In this document: piece by piece, positions 6,214 through 12,000 of the stretch
Position numbering within the stretch: position 1 is the stretch's first letter
Layout of the letters: the number at the start of each line of letters is the position of its first letter
Source of the DNA: Myxococcota bacterium
GTDB taxonomy: Bacteria > Myxococcota > UBA727 > JABDBI01
Length of the DNA stretch: 64,000 bases
Reading direction: 5' to 3'
NCBI GenBank assembly: GCA_040387835.1
Contig: JAZKCZ010000002.1
Coordinates: 341,166-405,165, forward strand
Translations under genes and position numbers: made by a program
The notes under the pieces: generated by a model
What the model saw: the letters and a program-made list of their open reading frames with translations, nothing else
What the model was told of the DNA's origin: nothing
Database searches by the model: none

Positions 6214-6244
6214 TCAGTCTTAAGCGGACATATCGCTCCTTCGA

Positions 6245-6302
6245 GGCTCCATGGGAGGGGCACGTTCTTACCCAGGCCGGCGTGAGCACTCGTCCGAACA
6301 GC
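6245..6302 (+). repeat. Truncated MITE-like arm (6245-6287) fused to a 16-bp duplicate of the dnaE 3' end (cactcgtccgaacagc, 6287-6302)
   Basis: ggctccatgggaggggcacgttcttacccaggccggcgtgagc matches the left arm of the 6841..7075 element. The 16-mer is identical to 9020..9035 inside the dnaE stop region. Confidence 0.55.
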
Positions 6303-6438
6303 TAAAAATAAAGCCAGAACTACAATCAGCTTATTAAACGTAGTCCGTCGGTATTAAAGAAAAAACGCCCCTGCAATCCCCAGCAACCACACCTGTGCAA
6401 AGGTGCCAGGCGCTCATCTTCAACGGGGATCTTATATC

Positions 6439-6512
6439 GCCCCTTCAGGGCTCTTTAGGAGGGGGACGGTGCCTACCCAGGCCGCCATAGATCCTAGATA
6501 TGCTGTACCGCC
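6439..6512 (+). repeat. Truncated MITE-like arm plus conserved tail module (ccatagatcctagatatgctgtaccgcc)
   Basis: cgccccttcagggctctttaggagggggacggtgcctacccaggccg aligns to the arm of 6841..7075. The tail recurs at 8519..8557. It sits immediately 3' of minus-strand ORF 6537..6821. Confidence 0.55.
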
Positions 6513-6536
6513 GAGCGATTAGTATGGCTCACCTAT

Positions 6537-6821
6537 CTAGGGTCGCCCCAACAGTTGTATCACTCCAAACACGGTGTTGGTAACCAAAGTAGTAACACCT
6601 AGCGCCGTTATCAGTGGAAACAGGATGGCATTGTGTGAATAGCCCGCTAATCTTGCTGCCATATATCCGCCTGCGGTCATCATCGTTATCCTTCCGTAAT
6701 CAGTCTCAGCGCGAGATACCGATGGCGAGGTTAACATCAATGCTAAAACCGAAAAGCACAAATATTTTTTAAAGTTCGCTGGCAAATACATGGTAGCTAC
6801 AACAGCTACACCAAGGGACAT
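6537..6821 (-). CDS. Small membrane/secreted protein, paralog family member D
   Basis: N-terminus ATMYLPANFKKYLCFSVLALMLTSP is paralogous to the 8541..8984 product (ATMYLQANYKKHCLVFCLMIVTP). It has a C-terminal hydrophobic helix. Confidence 0.5.
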   Translation of the reverse strand: MSLGVAVVATMYLPANFKKYLCFSVLALMLTSPSVSRAETDYGRITMMTAGGYMAARLAGYSHNAILFPLITALGVTTLVTNTVFGVIQLLGRP

Positions 6822-6840
6822 AATCCCTTTAAGAACGCAT

Positions 6841-7855: not shown

Positions 7856-7876
7856 AGGGATTAGTTTTATGGGTCG

Positions 7877-8341
7877 CTAGCGATTTACCCAACTTCTTCC
7901 TATATCGTAAATTATGACGATGGCAGGGGGCGCATAGGCAAGGGTCACCCCAGTCGCAAACACTGGCAACCACCAACTCCGCGGGGACGTATATTTATTA
8001 AGGCGAACTCCCTGTATTTCAAGCAAGCGGGTTTTATCGCCACAAAATCTGCGCGGTACAGATTCCAACGGGCAAGTACTTTCGAAGTTGGTACAATTCG
8101 ACATCAACACAGTAGAGTTACCTTGCAAATGCAAACAACAATGCAGAAAAGAGCCGTCGCACTCTTCTCTTTGGCCCCTTTCGAATCCCATAACCTGAGC
8201 AAGAGTATACATACAAACGCCAACCGATGAACTCGCAATAACCCCAGCCCAGATCTTCCAGTCCAATGGTTTCCGCGTGGTGGCTGCTTGTGCGTGAACG
8301 GACAACAACAAAACAATGATCAAAGCCAGTTGATGAAACAT
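7877..8341 (-). CDS. Small Cys-rich membrane/secreted protein. ATG start at 8341 (MFHQLALIIVLLLSVHAQA...). The ORF track extends to an upstream TTG at 8383.
   Basis: Two N-terminal hydrophobic segments, a middle domain with 9 Cys (ECDGSFLHCCLHLQGNSTVLMSNCTNFESTCPLESVPRRFC), and a C-terminal hydrophobic helix. Same architecture as the flanking paralogs. Confidence 0.5.
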   Translation of the reverse strand: MFHQLALIIVLLLSVHAQAATTRKPLDWKIWAGVIASSSVGVCMYTLAQVMGFERGQREECDGSFLHCCLHLQGNSTVLMSNCTNFESTCPLESVPRRFCGDKTRLLEIQGVRLNKYTSPRSWWLPVFATGVTLAYAPPAIVIIYDIGRSWVNR

Positions 8342-8418
8342 GCCTGGTCGATATAAAGCTAAGGGCGCTTGCGCAATCCCCAAAATTTATTGCTTGGAGC
8401 GGACTTATCGCTAGATGC

Positions 8419-8557
8419 TGGTGGAGGGGGCGTTCTTACATAGGCCGACGTTCGCTTCGCTCTCTCTGACCTGGGTACAAACGAGCCTGCCCACGAAAGA
8501 GCCCTGAAAGGGCGGTAAGACCATATCGCCGCCATAGGTATTAGATATGCTGTACCG
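8419..8557. repeat. Decayed MITE copy (plus-oriented degenerate arm fused to minus-oriented arm) and the conserved tail module
   Basis: ...cttacataggccgacgttcgcttcgctctctctgacctgggtacaaacg...agagccctgaaagggcggtaag... aligns to both arms of 6841..7075. The tail ccataggtattagatatgctgtaccgc matches 6485-6512. It lies immediately 3' of ORF 8541..8984. Confidence 0.55.
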
Positions 8558-8984
8558 CAGGCTGGCTAGTAGTTGTTTGCCTACCGGCATATAAACTTAT
8601 CACCGTCATGATTAGGCCCGATCCAGCCATACTCGGACCAACAATTAAAATCCAGAAACTACCTTTGTCTATGCCTTTTTGTTTCAAAGGGCCTTTGAAA
8701 TCCGAAGTGGTATTCGATTTACAAATGTTTGCACCTTTCCCTAGATTAATCAGTTGGGTGTAATTCGACTGCGAATCGCAATAGATAAAGTCGTCCGTTT
8801 CTTGTGTACGAAGTATAGCGCCTGCGATTGTTAGGCCAATTCCGCATAAACCTATCAACGAGGTTGCGACCAACTCCTTCTTGGTTTCGGCATCATAAGA
8901 GGCAGAGGCAAACGGAGTAACGATCATCAGACAAAAAACTAAGCAATGTTTTTTATAGTTCGCTTGAAGATACATGGTGGCCAC
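8541..8984 (-). CDS. Small membrane protein, paralog family member A (147 aa)
   Basis: MATMYLQANYKKHCLVFCLMIVTPFASASYDAETKKELVATSLIGLCGIGLTIAGAIL, a Cys-containing middle region, and a C-terminal helix SFWILIVGPSMAGSGLIMTVISLYAG. Confidence 0.55.
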   Translation of the reverse strand: MATMYLQANYKKHCLVFCLMIVTPFASASYDAETKKELVATSLIGLCGIGLTIAGAILRTQETDDFIYCDSQSNYTQLINLGKGANICKSNTTSDFKGPLKQKGIDKGSFWILIVGPSMAGSGLIMTVISLYAGRQTTTSQPAVQHI

Positions 8985-9014
8985 AACAACTAGACCCCGG
9001 CGCCTAATCCGCTT

Positions 9015-12000
9015 CTAAACACTCGTCCGAACAGCCTTCTTCACGCCACTGAGATTTTCCAGTTGAGCCAAAAAGGTATCCGACGCTTCCACGCGGATAT
9101 GGTCGCCGCATATCATATAGGTATTGAACCCTTCCGGGTGCTCAAAAATAAGCCTCATCGGCTTTTGACCGCGATGTTGCTCGCACAAAGTTTGTACCGC
9201 TTTAAGCAAGTCGGATGCATCGGAAGTAAGCGTTATATCTACAAAGCGTGTCTTTTCTTCCTGAGCCTTAGAAAGCATGGTCACGCTTTCAAGGCGCATC
9301 TTGGGCATGCCAACGTGGCCGTCATCGTCGATATCATCGATTAAGATTCGACCCTTAATTAAGAGAGGCTCTTTACTTTTAAGCAAGGCTTCATGCTCTG
9401 CGTAGGATTTATTGAACGCCAAGACTTCCACGCGCCCGAAGTTATCTTCTAAAGTCACCACGGCCCAGCGGCCCTCGCCGCTTTTGAGGACGCGTTCTTT
9501 TAGCTCGGCCACGATGCCCATGACTTGAACGGACTCTAAATGCTTCGCACTGGTGAGTTGCGCTGTAGCTAACACTCCTAGGCGTTTGGCTTCAGATTGG
9601 TACCGATCTAAAGGATGGCCCGACAAATAAAAGCCTAAAGTTTCGCGCTCGAAGTTGAGCTTTTCTTTCTCAGGCCATTCTTTGCATGACTCGTAGACTT
9701 CGGTGCTTTCGGTTTCTAAGGCGCCGAACAAAGATGTCTGACCACGCTCTTTGTCTTTTTGGGATTTCTGTGCGGAGGCAATCGCTTTTTCCACGGCTAA
9801 AAATAGCTGCTTTCTGGGCCTGCCGAAGCCATCGAAGCCGCCCGATTTGGTCAGGGCTTCTAAAACCTTCTTGTTAATCTTTTGTAGAGGCACTTGCTCG
9901 CACATTTGAAAGAGATTTTTGAACGGGCCATCTTTTTGGCGCGTTTCTAAAATCACCTCCAACGCGGCATCGCCCAAACCTTTGATCGCTTCCAAGCCGA
10001 ATCGAATGCGGCCTTCATCGACAGTGAATTTTCTCGACGAGGCGTTAATATCAGGCGGCAAAACTTCGATACCGGAGCTTCTAGCTTCTTGGATATACTT
10101 CACCACATCGCCTGTGGAATCAGAAGAGGTGGTGAGCAGCGCTGCCATGAACTCAACCGGGAAGTAGCATTTCAAATAGGCTGTCTGATAAGTAATCATC
10201 GCATAGGCAGCAGCATGGCTCTTGTTGAAGCCGTAACCAGCGAACTTCTCGATCGAATCGAAAATACCAGCCGCTTGGTCACCATCCACGCCGTTTTTCT
10301 GAGCACCAGAGATGAAATCTGCGCGCTGCTTTTGCATCTCCTCGAATTTCTTCTTACCCATCGCGCGTCTGAGTAAATCTGCGGTGCCTAAACTATAGCC
10401 GGCTAAAACCTGAGCGGCCAATAAGACTTGCTCTTGGTAAACGAAAGTTCCGTAAGTTGGTTTTAGAATCGCTTCCAACGATGGATGCGGATAGATAACT
10501 TTTTTACGGCCGTGCTTTCTATCAACGAAATCATCTACCATCCCGGACTGCATCGGTCCTGGTCGATAGAGAGCGCCTGCAGCAATAATATCTTCGAAAC
10601 AGTCAGGCTTTAGCCTTCGACACAAATCTTGAAAACCGCCGGATTCTACCTGGAACACGCCCAGCGTGTCACCAGAGGCAATTAGTTCGTAGACTTTTTT
10701 GGACTCAGGCGCGTTGGGCGATAAAAGCTCAACGTTTAATTCAGGCTTGCCTTCTCGTCTTAATCGCTCGTTAACCAGATCCTCGGCATGGGTGATAACA
10801 TCGAGTGTCTTAAGCCCCAAAAAGTCGAACTTAACGAGACCTGCATATTCGACTTTGTCTTTGTCGAACTGAGTAATAAATTCGCCATGCTGACCTTGGA
10901 AAATCGGCACGTACTCAACCAGCGGTTTATCGCCAATGACAATGCCGGCGGCATGCATACCTACCTGGCGGTACAAGCCTTCCAAGACTCGAGCAGTATC
11001 CAAAATACGCTGGTAAACCGGATCTTGGCGCGCTTTCTCTTTAAGCTTCGGCGCATATTCAAGCGCTTCATCTAAATCAGGTTTTTGACCGTCAATGAGG
11101 AGCGGCATCGGTTTGGTCAGTTCGTTGATTTCCGAAAATGGAATACCCAGCGTTCTGGCAACGTCTTTCACCGCGCTTTTGGGATTGAGGCCCGAATACG
11201 TCGCAATCTGACCGACGTGGTCTTTGCCATAGCGATCGGTTACATATTGAATCACTTCGCCGCGGCGCTCTTGCATGAAATCGATGTCGAAGTCGGGCAT
11301 GGAAACTCGCTCTGGATTCAAAAAGCGTTCAAAGAGCAAATTATAAGGAATCGGATCTATGTCCGTAATGCGCACAGCATAAGCCACCAAACTTCCAGCA
11401 CCTGAACCTCGGCCGGGACCCACACGAATACGACCATCTTTAGCCCAGTTAATAAAGTCCTGAACAATGAGAAAGTAGCCAGAAAATCCCATGCGGATAA
11501 TAACATCCAACTCAAGATTAAGCCTGGCCAAATATTGATCTTGATCGACTGGATACGGGAACTCTTTAAAACGGCGCAATAACCCTTGAACCGCTAAATG
11601 CCTTAAAAAATCGGCTTCATCTTGATGGCCTTGAGGAATTGGAAAGCTCGGCAAAAAAGTTTTGCCCAGTTTCATGTCTACTTTGCAGCGAGCGCCTACT
11701 TCACAGGCGGTTTCGAACGCTTTGGCGAAATCGGACTTCAATAAATCCCACATTTCCTGGCCAGAACGGATGTAGAACGCATCAGTCTCGTGCTTGTGAA
11801 GGGTTGGATCGTCCCAGGCTTTTTGTTGGCGGATGGCCATCAAAATATTTTGGGCATCATGCTCTTCCCGGTTCACATAATGGCAGTCGTTGGTGGCGAT
11901 GAGCCTAAGGCCCTCGCTGGTTGCCATTTCGGCCAAATGGGCATTCACGCGATTTTGAATATCGATGCCATTGGGCTGGACTTCCAAGAAAAAGTGGTCC

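Follow-up and report, generated by a model that had tools for sequence, protein, structure and literature searches.

What occupies the gap between the convergent genes dnaE (minus strand) and a frameshifted ankyrin (Ank) pseudogene (plus strand) in a metagenome-assembled genome labelled "Myxococcota bacterium" at NCBI, and did its contents arrive there as a mobile element? We examined this gap, the islet, within a stretch of 64,000 nucleotides (positions 341,166 to 405,165 of contig JAZKCZ010000002.1, which is 929,517 bp long; hereafter the window, to which all coordinates refer unless a metagenome locus is named). The first-pass annotation, made from the letters alone, had described the islet as a set of small three-helix membrane-protein paralogs, each followed by the same structured element, and had read an exact 16-mer at its two ends as the footprint of an insertion at the end of dnaE. 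We favor a different origin: the islet is probably a locally built, decaying tandem chromosomal array of orphan genes for small envelope proteins, separated by repeats resembling repetitive extragenic palindromic (REP) sequences, and not a mobile island.

The features of the islet and of its two borders are listed below. The small open reading frames (ORFs) are called P1 to P4, ORF143 and ORF65, and the repeats E1 to E4; locus tags are those of the NCBI Prokaryotic Genome Annotation Pipeline (PGAP), which annotated two of the islet ORFs, and bit scores and E values are those of a covariance model, R1, built only from 64 metagenome copies of the repeat.

5763-6213, plus strand: frameshifted ankyrin pseudogene
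6229-6287, plus strand: E4, a truncated repeat unit (R1 match 6229-6313; 11 bits, E=0.07)
6303-6404, minus strand: spacer and P2-like 5′ remnant, with ACG in place of ATG
6433-6539, plus strand: E3, a partial repeat unit (24.5 bits, E=4.6e-6)
6537-6791, minus strand: P4, 84 aa (94 aa from an upstream ATG)
6836-6951, plus strand: repeat unit of E2 (53.4 bits, E=4.6e-15)
6962-7079, minus strand: repeat unit of E2 (48.4 bits, E=1.6e-13)
7102-7222, minus strand: P3, remnant of a P1 paralog, 80% identical to 8782-8904
7246-7677, plus strand: ORF143, orphan (V4534_04375), overlapping ORF65
7658-7855, plus strand: ORF65, orphan, overlapping ORF143
7877-8341, minus strand: P2, orphan of 154 aa; signal peptide, 7 Cys, hydrophobic helix at the C-terminus
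8342-8392, minus strand: post-repeat spacer TGGGGATTGC...CGAC leading into P2, homologous to 6344-6394
8366-8519, minus strand: E1, repeat (20.1 bits, E=1e-4)
8541-8975, minus strand: P1, intact orphan of 144 aa (147 aa from a GTG start; V4534_04380)
9015-12530, minus strand: dnaE

The 16-mer, CACTCGTCCGAACAGC, is indeed present, as exact copies, at 6287-6302 and 9020-9035; a search of the window that tolerated one mismatch gave no third site. Its right copy, as had been described, lies within dnaE, where it provides the codons for AVRTS and one base, the first, of the V codon with which the protein ends; TT TAG comes next. In the closest DnaE relative among 5.8 billion proteins, which is 80% identical over the C-terminal 499 aa, the protein ends at the same residue (...ALENLEGVKKAVRTSL, that is KKAVRTSL, as compared with ...QLENLSGVKKAVRTSV* in the window), and the DNA at the end of the gene (GCC GTG AGA ACC AGT TTG TAG in the relative, GCT GTT CGG ACG AGT GTT TAG in the window) shows only synonymous differences apart from the last codon; the copy in dnaE, with the stop codon behind it, is therefore native. 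The distal copy is followed by CTCACGCCGG with no stop codon, and its frame runs on into the repeat (…AVRTSAHAGLGKN…). Local homologies, moreover, reach into it from either side. Its first 7 nt on the minus strand fall inside an alignment (A5) of the spacer and the 5′ end of P2 with their second copy, which is ungapped from TGGGGATTGC through GTTC (TCCGTTC in P2 versus GCTGTTC), and its last 5 nt, GAGTG, together with CTCAC GCCGG CCTGGG constitute hairpin B of the repeat minus its 7-nt apex, leaving about 4 nt that are explained only by dnaE. The second copy of the P2 5′ end encodes TFNKLIVVLALFLAV..., which resembles a signal peptide.

Exact repeats of similar length occur elsewhere in the window (four 15-mer repeats and one 20-mer repeat outside the islet and the internally repetitive Ank gene at 1897-5739), so that the pair of 16-mers alone is weak evidence; it is the position of the pair at both ends of a repeat-bearing zone, rather than its length, that makes chance an unlikely explanation. 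We infer that the left 16-mer is a relic of local illegitimate recombination, and not an attachment (att) site or a target duplication. Comparison of the dnaE flanks, which had been proposed as a check, shows the region to be lineage-specific and variable: the closest relative carries a PLD gene 48 bp after dnaE and has no islet. An Ank protein encoded after dnaE in a 59%-identical relative was considered as a case of conserved synteny and rejected, having only generic repeat similarity to the Ank protein of the window.

The repeat unit consists of hairpin A (CGCCCyTT(T)CAGGGCTC), about 20 variable nt, TACCCAGG, hairpin B, CCTGGGCT, a linker of about 10 nt and a GC-rich hairpin C; in the window, hairpin B bears an 18-nt apical insert ending in a GCGAAGC loop. 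Model R1 finds five copies, all within 6229-8519 and thus clustered within 2.3 kb, and none elsewhere in the 64 kb; the pattern with which its training copies were collected was derived from the window, so that about 24 positions match by construction, the rest being independent. All five copies are located outside intact ORFs, hairpin B is present in the two complete ones, and the pattern of hairpin A plus TACCCAGG alone matches four of the five. The element had been said to come after each gene, and it does follow P1, P3 and P4, but not P2; a fifth copy, at 6229-6287, lies outside the segment delimited by the 16-mers.

The copies are preserved to very different degrees. E2 (6836-7079) is an inverted doublet of two complete units, similar to REPINs (REP doublets forming hairpins), with arms of 76 nt that are 83% complementary; it folds with a free energy (dG) of -180 kcal/mol (z -15.7), and its units are the only strongly folding copies in the islet. 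Viewed as a candidate miniature inverted-repeat transposable element, E2 has the inverted arms, and no duplication is visible flanking 6836-7079. E1, which follows P1, is a degenerate composite palindrome (hairpin A, a variable stretch, a central hairpin B and an inverted arm) with 76% identity to 7014-7105, and folds no better than its shuffles (z +0.3). In E3, hairpin A, the variable stretch and the start of hairpin B are fused directly to the conserved gene tail, with the junction between ATGGCGGC and CTGGG, the gene-proximal unit of this doublet having been deleted. E3 is 92% identical to the copy at 6839-6887, and these two direct copies, which constitute the closest pair, flank P4. E4 is separated from the stop of the Ank pseudogene by about 16 nt and is broken inside hairpin B; its sub-type is that of the distal arm of E1, AGCGGAC(A/T)TATCGCT ... 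CGTTCTTAC. The 19-mer TACCCAGGCCGGCGTGAGC is exact in three of the copies, and in the genome collection it yielded only 15 single chance matches in unrelated genomes.

An Rfam search of the window at the gathering threshold returned nothing, and the copies in the window reach at best 16.9 bits with RF01687 (gathering score 37) because their hairpin B carries the 18-nt insert. In alignment A3 of the repeat, TAC precedes hairpin B and CTA or CTG follows it, with no invariant GTAG head. ORFs of 56-59 aa at 8359-8535 and 8411-8590 (minus) and at 6995-7165 are nothing but translated repeat (...YRPFRALSWAG..., ...PPLSGLQMGGG...).

The small ORFs that had been listed do exist, on the minus strand at 8541-8984, 7877-8341 (within 7877-8383), 7021-7260 and 6537-6821, and on the plus strand at 7246-7677 and 7658-7855. 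In P1, two more hydrophobic segments come after an AXA signal peptide, and the 5′ untranslated region (UTR) begins about 5 nt past the dnaE stop. As judged from hydropathy, P2 has an AXA signal peptide followed by a hydrophobic segment, then a stretch rich in Cys and, at the C-terminus, another hydrophobic segment; it is absent from the PGAP gene calls. Hydropathy gives three hydrophobic stretches each for P1 and P2 and two for P4, which stops ahead of the conserved tail, so that the three-helix architecture attributed to all of these proteins does not extend to P4. The first stretch in P1, P2 and P4 resembles, as read from the sequence, a cleavable AXA signal peptide. P3 is dead: its 5′ end is missing, a 1-nt frameshift follows GGCCTA, the middle and the C-terminal helix are gone, and the C-terminal third of the nominal ORF at 7021-7260 is translated repeat (...YRPFQGS...). 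ORF143 and ORF65 are placed between P2 and the 5′-truncated P3; a toxin-antitoxin reading of this pair was unsupported in any library and was dropped.

P1 and P3 share 80% DNA identity over 123 nt (tblastn E=2.5e-7), and the similarity between P1 and P4 is limited to about 50 nt of the 5′ UTR and the signal peptide (pairwise E=8e-5; 79% identity for the two together) and to the DNA of the 3′ tail (80%), the middles being unalignable. The tail, TAGATATGCTGTACCGC, is exact at 6495 and 8542; it encodes the C-terminus of P1 itself (PAVQHI*), and lies downstream of the premature stop in P4. Homology of P2 with P1 or P4 could not be demonstrated (E=0.1 with P1 by BLASTP; E=1.5). The view of these proteins as paralogs can thus be retained for P1, P3 and P4, with P1 and P4 connected only via UTR, signal peptide and tail, and is not demonstrable for P2, which shares the architecture only.

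Homology searches, which had been suggested, produced nothing beyond the locus: P1 and ORF143 matched only themselves among 5.8 billion proteins, P2 had zero matches among 1.84 billion representatives, and none of the small islet ORFs matched Pfam, PADLOC, NCBIfam or PHROGs. The islet ORFs were not found in three DnaE relatives nor in the 120 listed metagenome loci that bear the repeat. Exact-protein look-ups of P1 (147 aa), DnaE and P4 returned nothing, and P1 of the length called by PGAP led to a 3.8-kb Logan contig, which is discussed below. On a coding scale given by a periodic Markov model trained on 28 long genes of the window, P1 scores +0.05, P4 +0.005, ORF65 -0.01, and P2 and ORF143 -0.10 bits/codon each, as compared with 0.17±0.08 for true genes, -0.52±0.22 for wrong frames and 0.057 for the neighboring Ank gene. 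The candidates are therefore intermediate between core genes and wrong frames and similar to the Ank gene, and in every one of them its own frame is the best of six. A promoter and terminator scan did no better than on shuffles, and single-sequence AlphaFold models of P1 and ORF143 were uninformative, with a predicted local distance difference test (pLDDT) score of about 44 (44.6 for ORF143 with AlphaFold2). We take P1 to be a real gene, or one that was real until recently, and regard P2, P4, ORF143 and ORF65 as plausible genes; we infer that P1, and possibly P2, are envelope proteins expressed now or until recently.

The order of the parts suggests how the array could have been built. Read along the minus strand, dnaE is followed by P1 with its tail, E1, the spacer TGGGGATTGC...CGAC and P2, and then, on the other strand, by ORF65 and ORF143; next come the P3 remnant with its tail and E2, then P4 with its tail, E3 and a spacer, and, at the end, the P2-like 5′ remnant, the left 16-mer, E4 and the stop of the Ank pseudogene. 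The ancestral unit would have comprised a P1-type 5′ UTR and signal-peptide gene, a 3′ tail, an inverted repeat doublet, a spacer and a P2-type gene, and would have been duplicated in tandem at least twice, most likely by unequal recombination between repeats. Homology between the cassettes of P1 and P4 extends over UTR, signal peptide, tail, repeat and spacer, indicating that gene and repeat were duplicated together, as opposed to three separate repeat insertions, and the location of P4 between two 92%-identical direct copies is the arrangement that unequal crossing-over would leave. The divergence of about 20% elsewhere in the array, combined with the many truncations, indicates that the array is old and eroding. 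Its decay can be followed in the sequence itself: in addition to the losses and the frameshift in P3, there are a premature stop in P4 and a deletion of one repeat from its doublet, and of the last P2-type gene only about 60 nt at the 5′ end are left. The repeats probably arrived as ordinary elements of the REP/REPIN type, mobilized by a transposase encoded elsewhere in the genome. As to the left 16-mer, it may represent a piece of the dnaE end captured where the last P2-type remnant fused to a truncated repeat: either a patch copied from the dnaE end by a microhomology-guided template switch during deletion, or the later-trimmed junction of a tandem duplication that started inside the last dnaE codons.

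Several points weigh against this reconstruction. With cassette copies that differ by about 20%, and with P1 and P4 that cannot be aligned in their middles, the order of events is our reconstruction from what remains alignable. The coding scores of P2 and ORF143 are ambiguous. A Logan contig (3.8 kb, run SRR26324620, the same run) is identical to 7008-10784 and ends inside the large inverted repeat, so that a second assembly backs the right two thirds of the islet, the dnaE/P1 junction among them; the left part (6214-7008), which holds the left 16-mer junction, is without independent assembly support, and the inverted doublet could be a cause of misassembly. Finally, there is no gene for a Y1 transposase (the type found beside the repeat in metagenomes, see below) in the 64-kb window, and within this window, to which our view is limited, the repeat is confined to the islet, unlike a typical REP population, although such confinement does fit local amplification.

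Among the competing explanations, one that we consider unlikely dispenses with functional genes altogether: the space between the convergent genes would hold clustered REP-type repeats and decayed DNA, and the small ORFs would be chance or dead reading frames. The ORFs lack homologs anywhere in the 5.8 billion proteins (or, for P2, the 1.84 billion representatives), P3 is clearly dead and its ORF is partly translated repeat, P2 was not called by PGAP, the coding scores of P2 and ORF143 are below the 5th percentile of true genes, and most differences between the paralogs in their conserved segments are non-synonymous. However, at 48% GC chance rarely produces ORFs of 144-154 codons, and the scanned ORFs of the window with at least 150 aa all sit among recognizable housekeeping families. 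The own frame is the best of six in each ORF, and P1 is within the range of true genes; P1, P2 and P4 each begin with a textbook n-h-c signal peptide ending in AXA, and it is precisely the signal peptide with the 40 nt upstream of it that is best conserved between P1 and P4. A gene-free interpretation may hold for P2 and ORF143, and fits P1 poorly. The reading that had prompted the analysis, namely an integrated element, or its degenerate remnant, in the 3′ end of dnaE, with the 16-mer as att core or target-site duplication, appears quite improbable. Its true footprint would be an empty site with dnaE...GCTGTTCGGACGAGTG directly joined to CTCACGCCGG (dnaE-16-mer-CTCACGCC). It would account for an exact 16-mer found only twice, once at the stop of dnaE and once where the repeat zone ends on the far side, with different flanks on both sides, for the closest relative lacking the islet after dnaE, and for islet genes that are orphan and atypical in codon usage. 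The insertion footprint is nevertheless not supported by comparison with the relative, in which the length and the terminal residues of DnaE match those given by the gene-proximal copy: an insertion would be expected to displace the native end to the distal copy, the one that enters the repeat with no stop and overlaps local homologies, unless a later deletion at the distal end has hidden the native stop. A repeat of the same sub-type is located beyond the boundary, and in GC content the islet does not stand out from the DNA around it. No integrase, recombinase or transposase could be found in or beside the islet; on this, as on the lack of any known domain, the scans of the four libraries and a Y1 search agree with the earlier annotation.

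Two further models take the small genes as cassettes. In one, the cassette would be copied or exchanged as a unit via hairpins recognized by a Y1 transposase, forming a REPIN-bounded gene cassette or a variation system for small envelope proteins; if so, the copy beside dnaE would be the single one expressed, and those downstream would be decaying donors. We consider this very unlikely. Gene conversion of the antigenic-variation type was rejected, as the segments regarded as conserved are only about 80% identical and so are not being homogenized. In the other, for which we see hardly any chance, the islet is an integron-like cassette array, that is an attC cluster without an integrase, with the repeated element in the role of attC. 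Small ORFs without obvious promoters, in one orientation, each with an imperfect palindrome of about 100 nt behind it, do have that appearance, but RYYYAAC...GTTRRRY pairs at attC spacing were not observed at all in 6200-9060 (0, versus 0.46 expected in shuffles), the element matches a family found beside Y1 transposases, the cassettes share long homologous flanks beyond the palindrome, and no integron integrase is present (no Pfam match for the islet ORFs; the neighbors are dnaE and the Ank genes). The locally amplified, decaying array that we prefer removes the apparent lead to a mobile island or a novel small-protein system and leaves the islet mostly ordinary; it also illustrates how a housekeeping gene can come to bear what looks like an insertion footprint through palindromic repeats and illegitimate recombination.

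The repeat, in turn, is not private to this locus. The pattern of hairpin A plus TACCCAGG was found in at least 120 metagenome contigs among the matches listed (loci L020-L139, 629 kb in total), and these share features outside the pattern, namely the CCTGGGCT closure (at least 90% conserved), the linker and the third hairpin, in which compensatory changes are seen at all four pairs. The core of the metagenome copies, from hairpin B through the linker to hairpin C, is matched by the Rfam family Acido-Lenti-1 (RF01687) with 37-59 bits, the gathering score being 37. Metagenome variants with inserts in hairpin B similar to that in the window exist, and the link from the window to Acido-Lenti-1 is made by our custom model R1. 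Y1_Tnp (IS200-like) is the commonest Pfam family beside the repeat (7 of 146 neighboring ORFs), and tblastn places a Y1 transposase in 16 of the 120 listed loci, usually 5-60 nt from the repeat. These transposases are about 150 aa long (MPQSLSK..HLVFSTKxR...DERYxWD), and the loci have a common geometry in which a repeat on the minus strand lies upstream of the plus-strand Y1 gene and a repeat on the plus strand comes right after its stop, as in the following examples:

L108, 986-1734: Y1 gene with flanking repeats
L037, 198-982: Y1 gene with flanking repeats
L094, 980-1791: Y1 gene with flanking repeats

In 5 of 15 Y1-bearing loci, Acido-Lenti-1 matches above the gathering score are directly beside the gene. 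The Y1 proteins score 57-71 bits with NF033573 (IS200/IS605; cut-off 55) and 22 bits with NF047646 (REP-associated tyrosine transposases, RAYT; cut-off 80). Metagenome copies also form inverted doublets and tandem arrays (L022, L094), and are often found at contig ends, as expected of multi-copy repeats. The element of the window thus belongs to a widespread repeat family associated with Y1 transposases and represented in very diverse metagenomes. Within the listed loci, a CRISPR array with about 48 repeats (Rfam CRISPR-DR16) is separated in L094 (1435-5243) from a Y1 gene by four tandem copies of the repeat, and in L053 (2630-2777) there is a group II intron (D1-D4, 80 bits) about 1 kb from an inverted doublet of the repeat. 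The latter echoes the original description of Acido-Lenti-1 from Acidobacteria and Lentisphaerae, according to which the motif is sometimes near group II introns (Weinberg et al. 2010, PMC2864571).

What Acido-Lenti-1 does is still called unknown in a 2026 preprint, and a link to a transposase does not appear in those parts of the literature naming the motif that were available to us. Its placement as the core of a three-hairpin repeat of about 100 nt beside Y1 genes points to a role at the DNA level, as a transposase substrate, and not to a trans-acting RNA, and this association is the most reusable result of the analysis. Spurious ORFs that translate the repeat (similar to ...RPFQG... and ...PRALPWAG...), which could be mistaken for genes wherever the family occurs, can also be recognized and masked.

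Comparison with known systems places the repeat close to REP/REPIN elements and their Y1 (RAYT) transposases, the organization of which has been described (Bertels & Rainey 2011, PMC3116915; Bertels et al. 2017, PMC5581495). In common with them, it consists of short imperfect palindromes outside genes, includes an inverted doublet that folds into a long hairpin (6836-7079) and singlets resembling decayed doublets, and has metagenome relatives that flank a single small Y1 gene in inverted orientation. It differs in that the associated transposases pass the IS200/IS605 model of NCBI and fail the RAYT model, the unit (about 100 nt, three hairpins) is longer than classical REPs and has no clear GTAG head, the doublet in the window is tail-to-tail whereas most metagenome doublets are head-to-head, and the copies in the window are confined to one locus. 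With RF01687 it shares the two-hairpin core CCyAGG...CCTGGG, the linker of about 12 nt and the GC-rich hairpin; metagenome copies with the flanking motif of the window score above the gathering threshold, and multiple copies may occur per contig, sometimes near group II introns. In contrast, the copies in the window remain below that threshold, as noted above, and Rfam lists the family as a candidate small RNA, while here it behaves as part of a larger transposase-associated repeat. Tandem duplications mediated by REP sequences, with join points at these sequences, were reportedly described in enterobacteria by Shyamala and colleagues in 1990. The direct repeat copies flanking the duplicated unit P4 are reminiscent of such events, except that the duplications of the islet would be old and heavily eroded, and the event itself is deduced from the arrangement. 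The islet also has a likeness to att-bounded islands at gene 3′ ends, in which a short exact direct repeat that includes the end of a housekeeping gene brackets lineage-specific DNA; it departs from them in having no integrase, in carrying the native gene end at the wrong copy, and in a repeat family that crosses the boundary.

The families recognized in the rest of the window are ordinary housekeeping ones, and on the far side of the Ank pseudogene the gene order is as follows:

77-898: recA
902-1669: exonuclease III-type gene
1897-5739, minus strand: ankyrin-repeat gene, 1280 aa

The protein of 1280 aa has many ankyrin repeats with a period of 117 nt in the DNA, where long internal stretches at 3433-5120 are repeated exactly; its C-terminal half, about 500 aa, contains no Pfam domain, and the codon usage of its gene is atypical, as in the islet ORFs. 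The protein is effector-like, an unusual trait for a free-living myxobacterium. The gene is bracketed by an imperfect direct repeat of about 44 nt at 1846-1889 and 6172-6215, both copies of which encode ...TEPFM(S/T)RKPVPY*, the right one being the 3′ end of the Ank pseudogene at 5763-6213. The N-terminal part of this pseudogene is paralogous to residues ~140-170 of the large Ank protein. Farther along, an exact 20-mer direct repeat, CCAATGGCTTCCATTTTTTG, is found at 27392-27411 and 29914-29933 in two nearby minus-strand genes, which may be paralogs. A second, unrelated palindromic repeat family occupies a gene-free gap of about 700 nt at 48340-49060: its unit, CCCTCTCCTACnnnGTAGGAGAGGG, is a hairpin with a GTAG head present in at least four copies, with the arms GGGAGATTTTGGC/GCCAAAATCTCCC alongside, and these repeats have the look of a classical cluster of REPs or bacterial interspersed mosaic elements (BIMEs).

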